DNA from: a virus
Lineage: Duplodnaviria > Caudoviricetes
IMG/VR virus record: IMGVR_UViG_3300028326_000328
Coordinates: 8,331-72,330 of that record
Reading direction: 5' to 3' (one strand)
DNA: 64,000 bases
The position numbers and the translations under genes are program-made. Position 1 is the stretch's first letter, and every line of letters starts with the position of its first letter. Positions 2,307-50,758 of this stretch are shown here, in pieces. The notes beneath the pieces are model-generated. The model ran no database searches. It saw only the letters and a list, made by a program, of their open reading frames with translations, and had not been told where the DNA came from.

Positions 2307-4250
2307 CTACTCTTTTTTGTAAAATAGGGTTTCAAATCCGTCCGCGCGAAGAATCAGGTCTTTCGCCCAAGGCGGCGTGCGTACCATCTGTTCACACACG
2401 GTTTGCAGGGACATCCGCTGGTCGGCTTCGATAATGATTTCGTCATGCACGTGCGCCACGATGTTGCAGCAGCGCAGCGTCTTCATGGCGTAACACAGGA
2501 TGTCCCGGCTGATGGCCTGCACTATGTTCTCCACAAATTTTGGACCGTAGCTTTCGAGGCGCTCCCACTTCTTCGTGCCACCGATGCCTTCATACGTGAC
2601 CGATTCGCCCCCAAATCTGTTCTCGCCGATCCGGGGCTTCACGTAAGCAAGCTGTCTGCCCGATGGCAACTGGATAAACAGGAATCCGCTTTCATACACG
2701 AAACGGATACCGTGTGTTTCTGTGGTGACTCTTTCGGATACTGTCTCCTTGACAGCTGCGTCAATGTCCCACCAGAGCTTCACAATGTTAGGATTGGCAG
2801 CCCGCCATGCGTCCACCAGTAGCTTGAGCTCCTCTTCTTGAAGCCCCATTTCCAGCGCACCCATCGCCTTCAGCGCCCCCACGGAGCCACCATAGCCGAG
2901 TGCCAATTCTGCGATCTTCCCCTTCTGGCGGAGATGACCGTTGATCCCGTGCTTCTCCACGGGAACTCTGAACATCTGAGATGCGCTGGCACAATAGATG
3001 TCGCCGCCATTTTCAAAAACGTCAAGCCGCCATTGTTCCCCGGCCAGCCAGGCAATCACGCGGGCTTCGATGGCGGCGAAGTCGGAAACGATGAACTTTC
3101 CACCCTCATAGGGTACGAACGCCGTGCGAATGAGCTCGGAAAGCACATCGGGAACGGAATCATAGAGCATGTGTAGCGTTTTGTAATCCCCGCCTCGCAC
3201 AAGCGCTCGGGCTTGCTCCAGATCGACCATGTGGTTCTGGGGCAAATTCTGCAATTGAATTAGCCTGCCGGAAAATCGGCCTGTTCGATTCGCGCCATAG
3301 AACATGAACATGCCATGCGCCCGGCCGTCACTGCAGACGCAGTTGCGCATTGCCTGATACTTTTTGACCGATGCCTTCGCCAGCTGCTGCCGCAGGAGCA
3401 GCACATCCGCAAGGCCGTCGGGCGCATCCTTGCGCGCCGCCGCAAGCTCCTTTTTGCCGAGGGATTCCATTTCCAGACCGTTCTCAGCCAGCCACGCTTT
3501 CATCTGCGCAACGGAATTAGGGTTGTCAAGCGCGGTCACTTCCTGCATCTTAGCGCTGAGTTCTTCGCGGGAGCGCTCGTCCATGCGAATGGCGTTTTCG
3601 ACAAGCGTCATATCCAGCCTGATGCCCCGGTCGTTGATTTCCTGATCCAGATGATATTCGTCCCAGACGAAATCGGGCACGGGGAAACGGGAGAGCACCT
3701 TTTGTATAGACATTTCGGTCTCCACGTCGCGAAGATTGTACGACTTGAACAGCGCCCACTTATCCGGTGCGTCGGCAGCACGGTTGCGCGTACGACCACC
3801 GTTCGCCTTCGCCGGCGCGCAGGGCTGGCAGAAATACTTGATGAGGTCCTTGCCGGTTTCCAGCTTCTGTTTTTCCAGCTTCAGCACCGCGCCCACGCCT
3901 GTCAGCGAAAGCGGCAAGCCCAGATAAGCTGACCACACCATGGAGCAGCGCCACTGCTGAGGTTCGAGGTATTCACCCGAAGACAGACCGAGATAGCGTG
4001 ACAGGCAAACGCGTTCAAAACTTGCATTGAAGGCCCACTTGGTTACGGAGGGGTCGGTCAGCGCATGACGTATCTCAACAGGCAGCTGCTCTCCATTAGC
4101 CAGATCAACCACCTTCACAGGGCCGCCGTCTATGCTGTAGCCGAAGAGCAGCACCTCAAAATCATCCGCCTCACAATAACGGTAAACGCCCGTCTTGCTG
4201 AGGTCTGCACTGCTAAAGGACTCTAGATCGACACTTAAGTTTTTCATCAT
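2307..4250 (-). CDS. Phage family A DNA polymerase
   Basis: DLESFS exonuclease-like N-terminus, QLQNLPQ, DFAAIEAR (motif A), KIAELALGYG (motif B), HVHDE (motif C). Confidence 0.95.
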   Translation of the reverse strand: MMKNLSVDLESFSSADLSKTGVYRYCEADDFEVLLFGYSIDGGPVKVVDLANGEQLPVEIRHALTDPSVTKWAFNASFERVCLSRYLGLSSGEYLEPQQWRCSMVWSAYLGLPLSLTGVGAVLKLEKQKLETGKDLIKYFCQPCAPAKANGGRTRNRAADAPDKWALFKSYNLRDVETEMSIQKVLSRFPVPDFVWDEYHLDQEINDRGIRLDMTLVENAIRMDERSREELSAKMQEVTALDNPNSVAQMKAWLAENGLEMESLGKKELAAARKDAPDGLADVLLLRQQLAKASVKKYQAMRNCVCSDGRAHGMFMFYGANRTGRFSGRLIQLQNLPQNHMVDLEQARALVRGGDYKTLHMLYDSVPDVLSELIRTAFVPYEGGKFIVSDFAAIEARVIAWLAGEQWRLDVFENGGDIYCASASQMFRVPVEKHGINGHLRQKGKIAELALGYGGSVGALKAMGALEMGLQEEELKLLVDAWRAANPNIVKLWWDIDAAVKETVSERVTTETHGIRFVYESGFLFIQLPSGRQLAYVKPRIGENRFGGESVTYEGIGGTKKWERLESYGPKFVENIVQAISRDILCYAMKTLRCCNIVAHVHDEIIIEADQRMSLQTVCEQMVRTPPWAKDLILRADGFETLFYKKE

Positions 4251-7745: not shown

Positions 7746-9656
7746 TTACTCGATTATTTTACCGCGTTGGGCATCGCTGGTGATCAGCGAAGCGCCATGC
7801 TCCGCCAGAAAGTCGTTGACTTTCAGAAAACGTTCCGGGTACTTATGCATCAATGCAAATCTATACCAGATATGGGAATCCTTCTGTAAAACAAGCGGGC
7901 AGGGCGAGCTTCTCATAATATGTTCACTAACACCAAAAGGAAGATGCAGGCCAAGACATATCATGACAAGTGACTCTGTGGTTGGCTCACGTACTCCGTT
8001 TACAATGCGGCTAATTGTTTGATCGTCTAGCCCGATTCTTCTCTCAAGCTCTGCATTGCTTACGTTACGATATTTCATCATTTTCTGTAGGGCTAATGCG
8101 CAGTTGCCCGGCAAGCCTTCCTCCAGTATTTTTGCTTCTTCATGAACAGCAGTGGTAAGAATTTCTTTCTGCTTTTCAGAGCTTACATACTGATTCCCAT
8201 TGCTGTACTTGATTTCAAATGTAACGGGAGAGTCTTTGTCTTTATTAAGGAAACACTCAGTATGATATCGCTCTTTTTGCCCTGACTTGACTTCCATGTC
8301 AAACACGAGGCAACATAATTCCATGTGCCTACGGGCGTATTTCGTAAGGCACAAAGCGCCCTCGCCGTCTATGGTGACATACTTGGGGCTATTGATAACA
8401 AAATGCGAGTCAACATACACATAGTTTCCATCCTTCACCGTATCGCAGAAATCTGAGCATGTGAAGTATAGAATAGCCGCATCCTCTGCCGAGACAGAAA
8501 ACGTCTGGTTACGCTTAATGGAGTCTTTCTTAAAGGCATGCGTCCGGATATAACGTCCATCTATATAGTTAAACGCACCAACAGCCTCGTGAAACCCAGC
8601 GTCGACCATACGAATCTTTGCGGCGGTTCTGGAAACGCCATAGAACACGGCCAATGCGTTGATGAGCGGCTCAATGAAATCCAAAATATCGTCAGAGCCA
8701 GATTTTGCACGGTATTCGCGCAAGAGTTCGTATACCTTCATCTTGAAAGGCGCAAGCGGCATCTGTATGCGAGGCGCAAGCGCATTTGCATGCCACTCCA
8801 TCCAATCAATAGAACTTTTGTTGATACCACTAACACCGCCCACAACTTTACAGCATATTTGTGTTGCACTCTCGTTATACAGCCGTTCTAATTCAAATGC
8901 TTTTCGATGCTGATCCCAGTGGACGCATTCATGAACGATGGTATTATTGACCTGGCCTAGATTTCGAAGAAAGTAGGCTTTCGGGTCAACTATGATGGTT
9001 TTCGCTTGTGCATCGACTGTTTCCATCTTTTCTGCTCTATCATCATATAGTTCTGTAGTACAATCCCGAAAGCAAAGCTGCCCGAACACGGAAAAATCTT
9101 CGGTGATGCTTCGTATATCGATGGTAAGCCCCATAGCTTTTGCTAATTCGGCAGGGTCAACCGGCATCGGCTGCTTTAGCGCCTGCGAGTAGTGCCGCTC
9201 CAAAAAACCGTTCGCAACCGTCTCCAAATCATCCGAATGGATAAACGGCACAAGCGAATCGTCCAGCGGCTTTGGCATTCTATTTTTGCCACTATACGGC
9301 TTTACAGAGGCTATGTAAAGGTCGTTCAGATTCTTATCCAGATCGCCGGAGCATCGAAGCATAAACCACTCGATGCAGCTCTCGTCTGTGTCATAGTGAT
9401 AATCGGCTTCACGCACATATAGCTCGGCTTCGATAGCAACGTCAAAAGCTATCTTGCCGTCTGGCAGATCGCTAATGTTGGTATACAGGATGGTTGTATC
9501 GACAACCTCAATGTTTCCGATGTTCCGAACCTTATGGAGACGTAGATCAAGGGTGCTGGCATTTTTTTCGTCTTCGATATAATCCATAATCGCTTGTGAG
9601 AATTCGTCCTCGAAGCGATCACTGACGTATTCCTTGAATGATCGACTCTTGCCCAC
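7746..9656 (-). CDS. ImmA/IrrE-family metallopeptidase fused to a C-terminal XRE HTH
   Basis: IVHECVH (HExxH) and EWHAN; C-terminal VSNAELERRIGLDDQTISRIVNG HTH. Confidence 0.85.
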   Translation of the reverse strand: MGKSRSFKEYVSDRFEDEFSQAIMDYIEDEKNASTLDLRLHKVRNIGNIEVVDTTILYTNISDLPDGKIAFDVAIEAELYVREADYHYDTDESCIEWFMLRCSGDLDKNLNDLYIASVKPYSGKNRMPKPLDDSLVPFIHSDDLETVANGFLERHYSQALKQPMPVDPAELAKAMGLTIDIRSITEDFSVFGQLCFRDCTTELYDDRAEKMETVDAQAKTIIVDPKAYFLRNLGQVNNTIVHECVHWDQHRKAFELERLYNESATQICCKVVGGVSGINKSSIDWMEWHANALAPRIQMPLAPFKMKVYELLREYRAKSGSDDILDFIEPLINALAVFYGVSRTAAKIRMVDAGFHEAVGAFNYIDGRYIRTHAFKKDSIKRNQTFSVSAEDAAILYFTCSDFCDTVKDGNYVYVDSHFVINSPKYVTIDGEGALCLTKYARRHMELCCLVFDMEVKSGQKERYHTECFLNKDKDSPVTFEIKYSNGNQYVSSEKQKEILTTAVHEEAKILEEGLPGNCALALQKMMKYRNVSNAELERRIGLDDQTISRIVNGVREPTTESLVMICLGLHLPFGVSEHIMRSSPCPLVLQKDSHIWYRFALMHKYPERFLKVNDFLAEHGASLITSDAQRGKIIE

Positions 9657-45175: not shown

Positions 45176-45358
45176 TTTCGCAGAGCAAAGCGCGAAAGCC
45201 GACCACGGCGGTGGACTTTCGCACGGCGAAGCGCGAAAGCCGACCGCGCCGCTGGGACTTCTGCGAAGCAAAGCGCAAAACCCACCACGGCGGTGGGACT
45301 TCTGCGAAGCAAAGCGCAAAAGCCGACCGCGCCGGTCGGGCTTTCGCAGAGCAAAGCG
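45176..45358. repeat. 4.4 tandem imperfect repeats of 41-42 bp, alternating A/B, each with two hairpins
   Basis: Units start at 45176, 45217, 45259, 45300 and 45342; consensus TTYYGC..AGCAAAGCGCRAAAGCCGACC-N-GGAC. Confidence 0.9.
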
Positions 45359-45584: not shown

Positions 45585-45932
45585 GTGACCACCGCCGAAA
45601 AAACCGCCGCCGAAACCTTCTGCGCCGCCGCCGCCGCGCAAACCGCCGAAACCCGCGCCGCCGCCGACCGGGCCTTCCGGGCCAGCGCCCGCGCCGCCGA
45701 GGTGCCCTTCCGCGAAACCCGCGCCGCCGCCGCCCGCGCCAGCGAGGACGCCCGTCGCGCCGCCGAAAAAGCCGACGCCCTTTTGGACGGCTTTGACCCG
45801 GAGCCCTACAGCGACGGGCCGGGCGGGCTTTTCGACCAGACCTTTCAGGCCCTCATGGCGGCACACATGGCCCTAGACAGCGCCGCCCGCCGCGCCGCCT
45901 TCGCCGCCCGGTGTGCCCAAGAGAAGGCGTAG
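45585..45932 (+). CDS. Ala-rich, T-poor hypothetical protein (115 aa)
   Basis: GTG start after AAAGGGGA; first ORF after the promoter; its TAG abuts hammerhead 1. Confidence 0.55.
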   Translation: MTTAEKTAAETFCAAAAAQTAETRAAADRAFRASARAAEVPFRETRAAAARASEDARRAAEKADALLDGFDPEPYSDGPGGLFDQTFQALMAAHMALDSAARRAAFAARCAQEKA

Positions 45933-45933
45933 G

Positions 45934-45995
45934 CCCGCCCGATGAGGGCCGGTGGCTCCGGCCCGAAACGCGCACACCGCGCGTCGCGGGAAGCC
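45934..45995 (+). ncRNA. Type I hammerhead ribozyme HH1 (C3-C4 variant core)
   Basis: CCCGC / CCGAUGA / GGGCCGG-uggcu-CCGGCCC / GAAA / CGCGC-acacc-GCGCG / UC / GCGGG-AAGCC; predicted cut after C45985. Confidence 0.8.
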
Positions 45996-46023
45996 GCAAA
46001 AACACGAAAGGAGAGGTCTCCTC

Positions 46024-46890
46024 ATGAAAGACCAGACATTCGGCATTGAGATTGAAATGAACCACATCTCTCGCGCCAAGGCGGCGGAGGTCATCGCCGC
46101 GCATTTCGGCACACGCGTGGAATTTGTCGGCGGCACCTACGACACCCGGTGTGTGCCCGACGGGCAAGGCCGCAAATGGAAGGTGGTGTCCGACGCCAGC
46201 ATCGATGGGCCTGCCAACGAGCGCACGGAATTTGTCAGCCCCATCTGCCGGTGGGAGGACATCGAAACGGTACAGGAATTGGTGCGCAACCTCCGCAAGG
46301 CGGGCGCGCGACCCGACCCCAGCTGCGGCATCCACGTCCACATCGGGCGCGGGCGGCACACGCCCAAAACCCTTCGGAATTTGGTCAACTTGGTCAACGC
46401 CAAGGAGGACTTGCTTACGCTGGCTCTCCAAATCTCGCCCGAGCGCCGCGAGCGGTGGTGCAAAAGAATCGACCCCGACTTCCTCGAACGCCTGAACCGC
46501 CGCAAACCGCAAACCGACGCCGCCTTCGCCCAGCTTTGGTACAACACCTCCGGCTGGCAATCACACGCCAACCAGCACTACGACCAAAGTCGCTACCGGC
46601 TCCTAAATCTACACAGCGTTTTCCAAAAGGGCACGGTGGAATTCCGCGCCTTCAACGCGACGCTCCACGCGGGCGAGGTCAAGACCTACATCCAGCTTTG
46701 CATGGCGATTTCGCACATGGCTTTGGAATCAAGTTCGGCCTCCCCGCGCCGCCCGGAAACGGACAACCCGAAGTACACCTTCCGGTGCTGGCTCCTCCGG
46801 CTGGGGTTCATCGGCCCGGAGTTTGAAACCGCCCGCCAGCACCTGCTCAAATACCTGCCCGGCAACGCCGCTTGGAGACAGGCGGGCTGA
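46024..46890 (+). CDS. Amidoligase family protein (Amidoligase_2)
   Basis: TFGIEIE, DASI, EFVSP, SCGIHVHIG, RYRLLNL, KGTVEFR. Confidence 0.9.
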   Translation: MKDQTFGIEIEMNHISRAKAAEVIAAHFGTRVEFVGGTYDTRCVPDGQGRKWKVVSDASIDGPANERTEFVSPICRWEDIETVQELVRNLRKAGARPDPSCGIHVHIGRGRHTPKTLRNLVNLVNAKEDLLTLALQISPERRERWCKRIDPDFLERLNRRKPQTDAAFAQLWYNTSGWQSHANQHYDQSRYRLLNLHSVFQKGTVEFRAFNATLHAGEVKTYIQLCMAISHMALESSSASPRRPETDNPKYTFRCWLLRLGFIGPEFETARQHLLKYLPGNAAWRQAG

Positions 46891-46931
46891 CGCCCGACCG
46901 GCACAGCTTCCAAATCAAGTGTGCTGTGCCG

Positions 46932-46990
46932 CCCGCCCGACGAGGCTGATTGGCCATCAGCCGAAACGTGCCACACGTCGCGGGAAGCCA
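46932..46990 (+). ncRNA. Type I hammerhead ribozyme HH2 (C3-C4 variant core)
   Basis: CCCGC / CCGACGA / GGCUGAU-uggcc-AUCAGCC / GAAA / CGUG-cca-CACG / UC / GCGGG-AAGCCA; predicted cut after C46979. Confidence 0.8.
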
Positions 46991-47038
46991 CCGGCAGTGC
47001 CGGTACCAAAGCCCCCAAATCAAGCGAGGAGGTACACC

Positions 47039-47272
47039 ATGAACGAACGTATCCACCAAGAAATCCGAGGACTCCTGAATCACATGCGCCAAGAGCCATT
47101 CAATACGCGCGAACACGCCCTCAACATCGCCGCAATCGGTGGCATGCTCACAGCCATCAGGTTCATCACCGGCGAAAGCTGGGCGATGGTCAACGCAAAT
47201 CGCGCGACCCGGATGCACATCCAGAACGAAAGGACGGGCGAGTGCATCGAGGGGGATGTCGAAATGTTCTGA
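47039..47272 (+). CDS. Small hypothetical protein (77 aa)
   Basis: GAGGAGG RBS; MNERIHQEIRG...DVEMF; flanked by HH2 and HH3. Confidence 0.7.
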   Translation: MNERIHQEIRGLLNHMRQEPFNTREHALNIAAIGGMLTAIRFITGESWAMVNANRATRMHIQNERTGECIEGDVEMF

Positions 47273-47278
47273 AATAAG

Positions 47279-47349
47279 CCCGCCTGACGAGCAGCCCGGT
47301 GGCTCCGGGCCGAAACGCTCCGAAATCAACCGGAGCATCGCGGGAAGCC
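47279..47349 (+). ncRNA. Type I hammerhead ribozyme HH3
   Basis: CCCGC / CUGACGA / G(ca)GCCCGG-uggcu-CCGGGC-C / GAAA / c-GCUCCG-aaaucaac-CGGAGC-a / UC / GCGGG-AAGCC; AUC site with a C-A mismatch; predicted cut after C47339. Confidence 0.8.
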
Positions 47350-47380
47350 CAGCTTCCAAATCAAACGCAGGAGGTACACC

Positions 47381-47605
47381 ATGAACGAGCATGTGCAAAA
47401 TCAGGATTCCATCATCACCGAGGAAATCGTAGAGGAAGCCCTTGACGGAATCCTAAACGGGGAATGGGACACAGAAAACAGCGCCCTCGAAGGCGCTCGA
47501 ACCCGGACATTCCAACAGGCGGGCGTCATGACCTACAACAAGGGGTTGATCATCACCTTGCCCGACGGCACAGAGTACCAACTGACCATCGTCCGCAGCC
47601 GGTAA
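47381..47605 (+). CDS. Small acidic hypothetical protein (74 aa)
   Basis: CAGGAGG RBS; TFQQAGVMTYNKGLII..PDGTEYQLTIVRS. Confidence 0.75.
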   Translation: MNEHVQNQDSIITEEIVEEALDGILNGEWDTENSALEGARTRTFQQAGVMTYNKGLIITLPDGTEYQLTIVRSR

Positions 47606-47637
47606 GACGCCCACGGGGACACAGCTTAGCACAGGAC

Positions 47638-47670
47638 GAAACGCTCCTAACCGGGAGTGTCGCGGGAGCC
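47638..47670 (+). ncRNA. 3' half of a hammerhead (no CUGANGA strand)
   Basis: GAAA / CGCUCC-uaaccg-GGAGUG / UC / GCGGG-AGCC is present; the upstream catalytic 5' half is missing. Confidence 0.6.
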
Positions 47671-47703
47671 GCAAGCTTCCAAATCAAGAAGGAGGCACAC
47701 GTC

Positions 47704-48006
47704 ATGACGATGGAGGAAAAATGGAACGCCGCTCATGCCCTTACTGACCTCGCCGCTCGCAAGCTCGCCTTCGCCATTGTACAAACCGAATGGGAAATCG
47801 AGGAGGCCACCAAGCGCCTCTAAGACGCGCGCAAACGCGTCGAGGATTCCGCCACCCGGTCCAGTTCTGCAATGTACGCAGACAGCATCGAAGGCTGGCT
47901 GCGCGATTGGCGAAACGAGTACACGCGCCTTGCGGAAAAGAACCGAACGTTGGAGCTCCTGAATCACCTTGCCCGCGACGCCAAGCCAGAGGCCGCCCGC
48001 TCCTAA
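47704..48006 (+). pseudogene. Helical hypothetical protein interrupted by an in-frame TAA at 47821-47823
   Basis: MTMEEKWN...EATKRL*DARKRVEDS...PEAARS*: the frame stays open for 60 codons after the stop. Confidence 0.6.
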
Positions 48007-48016
48007 ATCAAACTGC

Positions 48017-48063
48017 CTGAAGATGGCCTTTGGCACAGGCCGGAACGCTCTTCAATCAAGGAG
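48017..48063 (+). ncRNA. Degenerate hammerhead
   Basis: CUGAAGA / UGGCCU-uuggcac-AGGCCG / GAAC (one A lost); the UH site and stem I are eroded. Confidence 0.45.
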
Positions 48064-48072
48064 GGACACATC

Positions 48073-48291
48073 ATGAAGATCACCACCGCAGCACAGTGCT
48101 TTGATATCCTCGACTGGTTCGACGATCCGCTTTACGACTACCTCGCACACAACCTTGTCGCCAAGCTCGACGGCGAGGAACGCATCGCCCGAGCGCTCCC
48201 ACATCTGATCGAACATACCACCGCGCCTGTTGCGGCTCACGCGGATAAGGCGAACGCTTACCCGGTGGAGTTTTGGAATCAACCCGCCTGA
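48073..48291 (+). CDS. Small hypothetical protein (72 aa); its stop codon is the UGA of the HH5 core
   Basis: AAGGAGG RBS; MKITTAAQCF...NQPA*. Confidence 0.7.
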   Translation: MKITTAAQCFDILDWFDDPLYDYLAHNLVAKLDGEERIARALPHLIEHTTAPVAAHADKANAYPVEFWNQPA

Positions 48292-48347
48292 CGAGTGCTG
48301 CATGGCTCGCAGCCGAAACCGCCCGCTTGGGCGGTCGCGGGAAGCTA
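48283..48347 (+). ncRNA. Type I hammerhead ribozyme HH5 (fully canonical)
   Basis: CCCGC / CUGACGA / G(u)GCUGC-auggcuc-GCAGC-C / GAAA / CCGCCC-gcuu-GGGCGG / UC / GCGGG-AAGCUA; predicted cut after C48336. Confidence 0.9.
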
Positions 48348-48380
48348 CAGCTTCCAAATCAAACGCAGGAGGTTTACACC

Positions 48381-48527
48381 ATGAATAGGATTGTCATCAA
48401 GGTCTGGCGGGGATTGGTTTCCGAAGTCTACGCAAGCGACGCCAACACAGAAGTCATCGTTATAGATGAGGATTGCGACGAGGTTCTACTCGCAGACACA
48501 GACTTGCCCGCACATCAGGTTTACTGA
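48381..48527 (+). CDS. Small acidic hypothetical protein (48 aa)
   Basis: CAGGAGG RBS; MNRIVIKVWRGLVSEVYASDANTEVIVIDEDCDE... Confidence 0.7.
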   Translation: MNRIVIKVWRGLVSEVYASDANTEVIVIDEDCDEVLLADTDLPAHQVY

Positions 48528-48557
48528 GCTTACAAATCAACCAGAGGAGGTATTCGA

Positions 48558-48764
48558 TTGAAAAGCATTTGCATCCGCGTGGAAGATGAAATACATCGCC
48601 AGTTGAAATGTGTTCTGCTGTATCGAGGTTCAACTCTTCAGGACTTCGTGATCGGACTAATCGAACGCGAAATCGAACGCGAGGCGAGCGAAATCGCGTA
48701 CAACGACACAACCGGCGAGGCAACAAGGCTCTTTCAGCGCGTCGGCATTCCTACCAAGCTGTGA
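48558..48764 (+). CDS. Ribbon-helix-helix-like DNA-binding protein
   Basis: N-terminal alternating strand SICIRV followed by EDEIHRQLK...GSTLQDFVIGLIEREI (RHH pattern); GAGGAGG RBS, TTG start. Confidence 0.6.
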   Translation: MKSICIRVEDEIHRQLKCVLLYRGSTLQDFVIGLIEREIEREASEIAYNDTTGEATRLFQRVGIPTKL

Positions 48765-48782
48765 AATTAAGGAGGAAACACA

Positions 48783-49223
48783 ATGAAGTACATCGCTTAC
48801 GGTTCCAACATGGTCAAGGAGCAAATGGACTACCGCTGCCCGGACGCCAGACTCATCGGCACCGGATACATCAAGCAGGCCCGCTTGGAATTCTATCTCC
48901 ACGCCACCGTCAAACGCTCCCAAATCAAGGACTCGCGTGTGCCGGTGGCGGTGTGGGAGATCTCGGAGGTAGACGAACGGCGACTCGACCGGTACGAGGG
49001 GTTCCCGGATTACTACATCAAGGAGGAATGGCCGGTCACCCTGTCGGACGGCTCCGAAATCAAGGGGATGATTTACCTGATGAAGCGCATCCGCAAAGCG
49101 CCGCCGAACATGGATTACTTCCAAGGCATCTTCAACGCCTACGAGGACTTGGGCCTTGAATCGGAAATCAACAGCGTGTTGATGCCCGCGCTTAGCCGCA
49201 GCCTCCGGCGCAAGAAGCGCTGA
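48783..49223 (+). CDS. Gamma-glutamylcyclotransferase (AIG2-like)
   Basis: YIAYGSNM, VPVAVWEI, LDRYEGFP..Y; the usual partner of amidoligase genes. Confidence 0.9.
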   Translation: MKYIAYGSNMVKEQMDYRCPDARLIGTGYIKQARLEFYLHATVKRSQIKDSRVPVAVWEISEVDERRLDRYEGFPDYYIKEEWPVTLSDGSEIKGMIYLMKRIRKAPPNMDYFQGIFNAYEDLGLESEINSVLMPALSRSLRRKKR

Positions 49224-49243: not shown

Positions 49244-49273
49244 AAGCCGCTCTCCATCGAGGGCGGCTTTTTT
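49244..49273 (+). terminator. Intrinsic terminator ending the plus-strand operon
   Basis: AAGCCGCTC-tccatc-GAGGGCGGCTT-TTTT. Confidence 0.75.
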
Positions 49274-49436: not shown

Positions 49437-49955
49437 CTATGGAATCAAGTCCAAGGCTACCTCGGTACCGCTTTCCGTCGCGCGAAACCGGACGAGCACT
49501 TTTCCATCCGCCACATCGTAGACCGCTTGAAACGGGTGGCTCCATAGCGACGTCAGCCCTGCGCACTCCGTGTAGGCTTTCACCCGATACACATTGAAAT
49601 CCACTTTGTCGCGCACGGCCTGCCATTCCTCAAAGATGCGGCGCAGACGGGGTACTTGTTCTTTTTGAAGGTGCTCCATAACGACCGCGCCCGGCAGCGC
49701 TTCGAAATCAGATTTCGAGCGCTCCGCTTTGAAACACGCCCAAAATTCAAGCGGCATCGGGCTTTGCATCATCTCAAGCACCGCCTCCGTCGTGCCGCAA
49801 TCATCGCAGACATACAAACCGACCTGACGGCTGAGCGCGTTCCGATGGATTTTCCGGTTCATGGAATCCTGCCCACAGCGCGGGCAAAGCATGTGCTCCC
49901 CGGCCATCTGCCGGACTCTCAAATCAAGTAAGACCTGTTCTTGTTTCTCAGTCAT
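49437..49955 (-). CDS. Zn-binding hypothetical protein
   Basis: CPRC and CDDC motifs; coupled to the upstream gene by an ATGA overlap. Confidence 0.7.
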   Translation of the reverse strand: MTEKQEQVLLDLRVRQMAGEHMLCPRCGQDSMNRKIHRNALSRQVGLYVCDDCGTTEAVLEMMQSPMPLEFWACFKAERSKSDFEALPGAVVMEHLQKEQVPRLRRIFEEWQAVRDKVDFNVYRVKAYTECAGLTSLWSHPFQAVYDVADGKVLVRFRATESGTEVALDLIP

Positions 49956-50758
49956 CTTGCTTCGCCCCCCCTTGTTTCGCGGGCAATCCTGCGGATTTCG
50001 GCGTACTTGTCCTTGTGCTTCATGGCTTCATCATCGTTGCGGAAAGCCGTGTGGCCTTTGAGGCCTGTGAGCAGAGCGTTCCGGGACGCTTTGAAATCAG
50101 CGCCGCCAAAGCCCAACCGTAAAAGCCAAGAGCGCAACACATACTTTTCGTTCTCCGGGCGGCGCACCTCCGCGTTGACCCGCTTCGCCTCTCGCGCCGC
50201 GCGCACCATGGCGCTGACCAAGTCGGCATACGCCTTGTTCTTTTCCGGGGCTTCGTCCAGCGGGAAGTTCAGCGTGACTGTGCCGTCTTGGAAATCGACG
50301 CCGGTCAGGTCGCCCAGCGCTTTGAAATCGCCCATCAGGGTTTCAAAATGAGCAAGGGTTTCCGGCAGGTATTCGCCCAAGCGAGTCGTGACCGCCTCGG
50401 AAATCGAGAAACTCTCGCGCCGCGTGACCCGGTTCAACAGGTGCTGGTAGCCGTAGAGCGTGTAAATCAAATTCCGAAGCTGATTCCCGTCCATGTCCTC
50501 CGTGGGCACCGAAATCGCCAGCGTCTCAATCTCTGTTTCGATCTCCGGTTCGATGAAGCCGTGTTCCATCAGGAAGGGCTTCAAGCCTTCCAGTGCCTCG
50601 GCATCCTCGCCGGTGATGGAACCGTCGCGCTCCACCGTCACCGGGCCGATGCTGTAGGAAAAGGATGGCGGCCCCTGATACCGCGATTCCGCTTGCAGGT
50701 GCTCTGCAATCTTCTTCACCAAGGTGCGCCGGTCTTCCGCGTGGGTTTGGATGGTCAT
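49952..50758 (-). CDS. Phage so-called virulence-related protein (function unknown)
   Basis: YQGPPSFSYSIG N-terminus; C-terminal ENEKY..RSWLLRLGF.G..FK..R..LL..LKG..AFR. Confidence 0.7.
   Translation of the reverse strand: MTIQTHAEDRRTLVKKIAEHLQAESRYQGPPSFSYSIGPVTVERDGSITGEDAEALEGLKPFLMEHGFIEPEIETEIETLAISVPTEDMDGNQLRNLIYTLYGYQHLLNRVTRRESFSISEAVTTRLGEYLPETLAHFETLMGDFKALGDLTGVDFQDGTVTLNFPLDEAPEKNKAYADLVSAMVRAAREAKRVNAEVRRPENEKYVLRSWLLRLGFGGADFKASRNALLTGLKGHTAFRNDDEAMKHKDKYAEIRRIARETRGGEAR

Follow-up and report, generated by a model that had tools for sequence, protein, structure and literature searches.

Four clustered type I hammerhead motifs, predicted to process the transcript of a prophage amidoligase operon

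Small accessory operons of prophages can carry ribozyme motifs between their genes. Here we describe four type I hammerheads in such an operon, at about 45585-49223 on the plus strand of a 64,000-nucleotide (nt) stretch of the IMG/VR virus record IMGVR_UViG_3300028326_000328 (positions 8,331 to 72,330 of the record, hereafter the window, to which all positions refer unless otherwise stated). The operon includes an amidoligase gene and ends with a gene for a gamma-glutamyl cyclotransferase (GGCT). We propose, with a probability of roughly 70%, that the four hammerheads are catalytically competent and would cut the amidoligase-to-GGCT transcript in cis into five RNAs with uniform leaders. On the comparative sequence evidence, these are genuine hammerheads on which selection for catalysis acts.

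The four units, which we call HH1 to HH4, occupy positions 45934-45997, 46932-46991, 47279-47351 and 48283-48348, all on the plus strand. These are exactly the coordinates at which the initial annotation, made from the letters of the sequence, had placed four complete type I hammerheads. The units share one layout. From 5′ to 3′, each consists of a CCCGC strand of stem I, the core C-(U/C)-G-A-(U/C)-G-A, a stem II hairpin of 6-7 base pairs (bp) and G-A-A. These are followed by a stem III hairpin of 5-8 bp whose first pair is A-U and by the cleavage-site C, and the unit closes with GCGGG, the partner strand of stem I, and a conserved tail (AAGCC or AAGCU). Because stem I is open and the other two stems end in loops, the topology is that of type I. 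Cleavage is predicted between 45985 and 45986 in HH1, 46979 and 46980 in HH2, 47339 and 47340 in HH3, and 48336 and 48337 in HH4, so the 3′ products would begin at 45986, 46980, 47340 and 48337. For HH1 and HH3 the three-way junction is also returned by a minimum free energy (MFE) fold.

No hammerhead was found by Rfam 15 scans, either at the gathering threshold or at E-values up to 10, therefore we built a covariance model from the four window copies. This first model was used to search 128 loci that carry relatives of the amidoligase, 48 of them from IMG/VR and 80 from metagenome-assembled genomes (MAGs) or other genomes. There were 88 matches in the former and 138 in the latter, about 220 homologous units, with up to eight in a single 5.5-kb locus. 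All but one weak match (E 0.05) lie on the amidoligase strand. The window copies score 80.3, 75.5, 77.2 and 84.8 bits (HH1 to HH4) with this model. A second model, built from the 138 units of other genomes only and so independent of the window copies, recovers the same four units from the 64-kb window with 70.8, 66.5, 65.5 and 77.6 bits (E about 1e-13 to 1e-15), and nothing else beyond the two relics described below.

The initial annotation had pointed to related prophages as a place to look for the same architecture, and the cores are indeed kept across the units of these phage and MAG loci. Among the 208 units that could be fully parsed, 201 have the core CUGANGA (CUGAYGA in 195), seven have CCGAYGA, and C17 is present in 205. 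Stem I is CCCGC/GCGGG in 172 units, with the compensated variants UCCGC/GCGGA in 16 and CUCGC/GCGAG in eight. Stems II and III had been described as differing in sequence yet still pairing, and this covariation holds in 77 distinct homologues: 90.7% of the cells are paired, compared with 74% after shuffling, and none of 500 shuffles reaches the observed values. Changes on both sides are found in 17 of 23 pairs (6/6 in stem III, 6/7 in stem II and 4/5 in stem I), and when the partners are slid by 1-3 columns only 28-43% are paired. That 195 of 208 cores are perfect despite widely diverged stems calls for purifying selection on catalysis.

The window copies differ in the quality of their cores. 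When compared with the hammerhead consensus (C3 U4 G5 A6 N7 G8 A9, G12 A13 A14, the pair A15.1-U16.1 and H17), the canonical HH3 (CUGACGA) and HH4 match in full, and HH1 (CCGAUGA) and HH2 (CCGACGA) match apart from a C at position 4. The C4 core occurs in only 7/208 units, which belong either to the window or to a few related loci. U4C is a natural variant with a considerably reduced in vitro activity, and still permits infectivity of a viroid (PMC3088659). HH1 and HH2 are therefore probably slower cutters. In HH3 the second pair of stem III is a C-A mismatch, and the stem III loop carries an AAAUCAA motif. Thus the core and pairing stems listed in the initial annotation can be read in all four units, with the qualification that the C of HH1 and HH2 is a weakening variant and that one stem of HH3 is imperfect.

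A feature absent from that list is a pseudoknot. Loop II (UGGCU, UGGCC or AUGGCUC) is complementary to the tail directly 3′ of stem I (AGCC, GCCA or AGCUA), and 3-5 bp can form in 195/208 units. This pairing covaries too: a GCC tail occurs with a GGC loop in 168 units, and an ACC tail with a GGU loop in 8 units and with GCGG, in a shifted register, in 5, with one exception. Experiments have shown that rapid cleavage at low Mg2+ requires a contact of this type (PMC3088659). The units have the open-stem-I topology, catalytic core and cleavage site of the Rfam type I family RF00163 (Hammerhead_1), and differ from it in having a short, 5-bp stem I and the tail pseudoknot instead of loop-loop contacts.

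One half copy and one degenerate copy had also been reported, and both are present, with scores of only 19.9 and 17.7 bits from the second model. The half copy (47592-47672, plus strand; E 0.057, and 16.1 bits with the first model) retains GAAAC, stem III, GUC, GCGGG and the tail. It has lost the 5′ strand of stem I and the CUGAYGA core, and its MFE fold contains no junction. The degenerate copy (48012-48060, plus strand; E 0.18) retains CUGAAGA and stem II, has GGAA in place of GAAA, and has lost the cleavage site and the 3′ strand of stem I. Its former stem III 3′ arm overlaps the ribosome-binding site (RBS) of the open reading frame (ORF) that starts at 48073. Several relics are also found in relatives such as L004, L032 and L098.

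The units also have a fixed position relative to the ORFs. The predicted cuts had been put 38-59 nt upstream of the next start codon, and the leaders do measure 38 (HH1), 59 (HH2), 41 (HH3) and 44 nt (HH4). Across the family, 199/208 units precede an ORF of 30 aa or more that has an RBS and a start codon, and the median leader is 46 nt long. On the upstream side, HH1 begins 2 nt past the stop codon of ORF 45585-45932 and HH2 begins 41 nt past the amidoligase stop, while the core UGA of HH4 (48289-48291) is itself the stop codon of ORF 48073-48291. With strict RBS-based gene calls for 143 distinct units, the upstream ORF stops 0-10 nt before the unit in 43 (including HH1 and HH3) and within the core UGA in 31 (as in HH4). 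About half of the units, HH2 included, lie 12-69 nt past the upstream stop. The units are 360-997 nt apart in the window, where four fall within 2.4 kb, and the family median is 747 nt.

From the motif, its conservation, its covariation and its placement among the ORFs, we infer transcription of the operon, cleavage in vivo and a benefit to the phage. A single plus-strand transcript would carry all four units, each of which would fold once its own 3′ strand had been made and would cut after C17. Five RNAs would result: the first ORF; the amidoligase alone (45986-46979, 994 nt); a 77-aa ORF alone (46980-47339, 360 nt); a three-ORF piece with the two dead units as internal borders (47340-48336, 997 nt); and a last three-ORF piece running from 48337 to the terminator, with GGCT at its end. 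With the type I topology nearly the whole ribozyme is left on the upstream piece, so that each upstream piece would keep its stop codon and end in two GC-rich hairpins and a 2′,3′-cyclic phosphate. The downstream pieces would begin with a 5′-OH and the same leader, namely GCGGG-AAGCC, often an AAUCAA motif, AGGAGG and the start codon. As a probable benefit, every gene block would obtain defined ends and a uniform 5′ untranslated region (UTR) whatever lies upstream, which would suit a region where related phages exchange genes.

Self-processing of a polycistron, as the initial annotation had it, is the best-supported function and also the published reading for such clusters (PMC3088659). The description of the products as mono- or dicistronic needs amending. 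Two of the pieces, those with the amidoligase and the 77-aa ORF, are monocistronic, and the pieces 47340-48336 and 48337-terminator hold three ORFs each.

Several observations weigh against this interpretation. A promoter scan found no sigma-70-like site for the operon. In a fold comparison the predicted openness of the RBS is hardly altered by cleavage (0.53 before and 0.56 after), which gives no sign of unmasking. U4C is present in two of the four units, and HH3 has its mismatched stem III. A test of neighbour variability across hammerheads, described below, gave mixed results. Finally, RF00163 on its own scores the units at 11-23 bits, where the gathering score is 34 (HH4 has 11.1 bits and the best unit of the record 23). 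The initial annotation had named the Rfam hammerhead models as a check, and none of the units reaches their threshold. Nor was there a hammerhead match to Rfam in related loci that hold 6-8 units each. With such scores the units are missed by Rfam-based annotation. A weak RF00163 match elsewhere in the window, at 4135-4210, was inspected and is not hammerhead-like.

Comparison of related operons raises a different possibility, which overlaps with our preferred explanation. The hammerhead, leader and RBS form a unit of about 110 nt that might be kept mainly as shared sequence for recombination between related phages, at which small accessory genes are swapped, with cleavage serving as an insulator for the genes that are brought in. 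When the window is aligned with its closest relative (92% amidoligase identity), HH1 with the amidoligase and the last genes of the operon are colinear, and between these ends only the hammerhead-plus-leader units match, the genes being different. The window and locus L052 share only the units between differing genes, and one gene has moved across a unit. In gene maps of 80 distinct loci, the same small-gene families appear in many orders between the amidoligase and GGCT. The families of the 74-aa and 72-aa ORFs of the window, for example, have 26 and 20 members in related loci. For a given upstream gene, the downstream neighbour shows less constancy when a hammerhead intervenes (0.14 against 0.31). 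In the reverse direction, given the downstream gene, an intervening hammerhead goes with no extra variability of the neighbours (0.30 against 0.25). Furthermore, homology at the DNA level fails to explain why catalytic nucleotides are strictly conserved while the stems covary freely, and no recombinase is linked to the operon. We therefore regard a role as mainly a recombination border as possible and on balance unlikely.

The array is limited to a phage lineage of the Christensenellales/Oscillospirales type and does not track the amidoligase gene itself, since Lachnospiraceae amidoligase loci (L111-L130, from Lacrimispora, Hungatella and others, 53-56% identity) lack units of this family, and no Rfam ribozyme is found close to them. 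Complete units number four in the window, six in the whole record and up to ten, within 6.5 kb, on a contig of a host MAG.

A second sequence element occurs in the same region. The 13-mer GCTYYNRAATCAA, allowing up to one mismatch, has 21 plus-strand occurrences between 46599 and 51336, the exact matches lying at 46720-49063. One further occurrence, elsewhere in the window, is on the minus strand; the expected number is 2.5. Related loci totalling 921 kb contain the exact motif 343 times, in every case on the operon strand. The shorter form RAATCRA lies 15-25 nt past the cut in 100/170 distinct hammerhead units, and also occurs in some stem III loops and within genes. A 9-bp hairpin, CGGCACAGC ... 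GCUGUGCCG, the loop of which presents the UUCCAAAUCAA motif, lies in the gap from the amidoligase stop to HH2 (46891-46931), and a similar hairpin, ACCGGC ... GCCGGU, is located 3′ of HH2.

The strict strand polarity of GCTYYNRAATCAA suggests a signal that acts at the level of RNA or is coupled to transcription. One could speculate that the array does more than trim mRNAs passively. Its interchangeable self-excising cassettes, each with an invariant stem I, tail and leader, could combine with the overlapping stop codons and the strand-polar GCUYYNRAAUCAA motif 15-25 nt past the cut into a phage-specific layer of post-transcriptional control, e.g. cleavage gated by ribosomes, or recognition of the motif on 5′-OH leaders by a protein or RNA. 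We consider this idea quite improbable as it stands.

Another form of coupling to translation would be a switch in which the stop of the upstream ORF falls at or within the ribozyme's 5′ strand, a terminating ribosome blocks folding, and cleavage would report on upstream translation. The stops in the core UGA of 31 of the 143 distinct units (HH4 among them), and 0-10 nt upstream of 43 more (HH1 and HH3 among them), are what such a switch would use. However, with about half of the units 12-69 nt past the stop, as HH2 is, the overlap is no rule. Tight packing is also common in phage genomes, and the UGA, as a fixed element of the core, may have been co-opted by chance as a stop in one frame. We find a translation-sensing switch very unlikely.

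The initial annotation also raised the possibility that pieces bounded by two hammerheads are closed into single-gene circular RNAs. Such a piece would close on itself through the shared stem I and the pseudoknot partner, and would be ligated by the reverse ribozyme reaction or by an RtcB-type ligase. In the window, identical stem I helices and compatible tails would let the 5′ end of a piece pair with the ribozyme body that it carries at its 3′ end, and across the family stem I has the same CCCGC/GCGGG sequence in 172/208 units. Because all four stem I helices of the window are identical, the window itself is uninformative on circles, and the evidence has to come from relatives. In 30 informative neighbour pairs with differing stem I sequences, the strands of a unit pair 5/5 with each other, but only 4/5 with those of the next unit in 20/30, including the piece with the amidoligase in several loci. 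Stem I is thus compensated inside the unit and not between neighbours, which indicates that selection acts on the cis fold. In addition, RtcB was not found in the provirus and is present in only one of five array-carrying host MAGs (a count to which the incompleteness of MAGs applies), and no circular or spliced products were detected from comparable clusters (Perreault et al. 2011, PMC3088659). We consider ligation into circles unsupported, and highly improbable. That the units are inactive remnants of a spreading intergenic repeat, which might be read from the two relics in the operon, several more in relatives such as L004, L032 and L098, and U4C in HH1 and HH2, is hardly credible, given that relics lose many core positions together and fall below 20 bits, that 195/208 units keep a perfect core, and that U4C is a natural variant still functional in vivo in a viroid (PMC3088659).

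The operon opens with a 115-aa ORF (45585-45932, plus strand, like all genes of the operon), which has a GTG start with an RBS and no family match. The amidoligase gene (46024-46890; Amidoligase_2, PF12224, E 3.8e-65; phrog_2443) is bounded by HH1 and HH2, and the 77-aa ORF (47039-47272), which has no family, by HH2 and HH3. Between HH3 and HH4 there are three small ORFs, at 47381-47605 (74 aa), 47704-47823 and 48073-48291 (72 aa), which the relics separate from each other. The frame of the middle one continues to 48006, giving 100 codons with a good RBS and an in-frame TAA at 47821-47823, and this split ORF, which may represent a single broken gene or a pair of short ones, has no homologue outside the source record among the loci compared. 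The last block contains ORFs 48381-48527 and 48558-48764 and the GGCT gene (48783-49223; GGACT, E 5e-11; phrog_2520). A terminator-like hairpin of 11 pairs with a T run follows at 49244-49269 on the plus strand. There are thus six family-less small ORFs between the amidoligase and GGCT; no Pfam or PHROGs family was found for the small ORFs, except a PHROG of unassigned function for 48558-48764.

The source record, 72 kb in length, is an IMG/VR provirus that encodes a terminase, a ParB-methyltransferase, a helicase-primase and a DNA polymerase. A Candidatus Limiplasma MAG holds the closest amidoligase (92% identity), and other relatives are from Christensenellales, Oscillospiraceae and unclassified Clostridia. 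The prophage, whose hosts would be Christensenellales-like Clostridia, carries the hammerheads in a plus-strand accessory operon. Both flanks of the operon are minus-strand, with the ParB-methyltransferase and large terminase genes on one side and a second amidoligase, helicase, primase-helicase and DNA polymerase genes on the other. The second amidoligase-like gene is divergent (49952-50758, minus strand; phrog_2443, E 2e-41) and lies just beyond the operon terminator. The initial annotation had mentioned a cos-like site beside the operon; what is seen on the upstream side, in the gap between the ParB-methyltransferase gene and the operon start, is a 41-bp tandem repeat of 4.4 copies with 79% match (45176-45358), a possible regulatory or origin-like region. 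Upstream of the window, at the record's other end, there is a paralogous amidoligase operon (L001) with two complete hammerheads of the same family, at record positions G000:C1:1360-1420 and 1855-1919 (64 and 63 bits).

How does this locus compare with known systems? Clustered hammerheads that flank small prophage genes were published in 2011 for Clostridium scindens, Azorhizobium caulinodans and Agrobacterium tumefaciens (Perreault et al., PLoS Comput Biol, PMC3088659). Clusters from the three bacteria cleave during transcription in vitro, and that of A. tumefaciens also does so in E. coli. The authors proposed that mRNAs of operon or gene length are processed from a long phage transcript or, alternatively, that circles are formed (PMC3088659). 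Later reviews describe hammerheads as flanking small, non-conserved ORFs and regard the role of the prokaryotic examples as still open (PMC6155905, PMC6765202). The initial annotation had hinted at a new arrangement, and these publications show that it was already known. No paper linking a hammerhead with an amidoligase was found in the literature that we searched.

The likeness to the 2011 clusters is close. In both cases several hammerheads lie on the same strand of a prophage within about 2 kb, with small, non-conserved genes between them, and both have a Watson-Crick pseudoknot that joins stems I and II as well as natural core variants. What defines a clustered prophage array, two or more nearby hammerheads on one strand that flank single genes or short blocks in phage DNA, is what we find here. 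As far as can be judged from the nucleotides, the locus has every feature of the hammerhead class and of the clustered arrangement, and falls short only of the Rfam score threshold. There are also differences. The tested examples have two or three units, compared with four here and up to ten on the host MAG contig, and the present family is tied to the amidoligase-to-GGCT operon of Christensenellales/Oscillospirales phages.

An engineered parallel also exists. Synthetic ribozyme insulators of the 5′ UTR, e.g. RiboJ, which was engineered from a satellite RNA ribozyme, cut off the upstream part of a transcript to leave a constant, short leader. The units described here resemble these insulators in their fixed downstream leader, and by analogy they may insulate the genes that follow them.

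In summary, the locus is a clean and well-conserved example of a known arrangement, not a new kind of system, and it leaves our knowledge of such systems unchanged. What it adds is a large and coherent family on the amidoligase-to-GGCT operon, arrays that are denser than the tested examples, and natural U4C copies. The result is a comparative data set of more than 200 units from 128 loci, with a fixed position relative to the ORFs and with relics and U4C variants side by side. As this large set is invisible to Rfam, it could serve both as a test bed for processing and insulation and as a seed for a better type I model.

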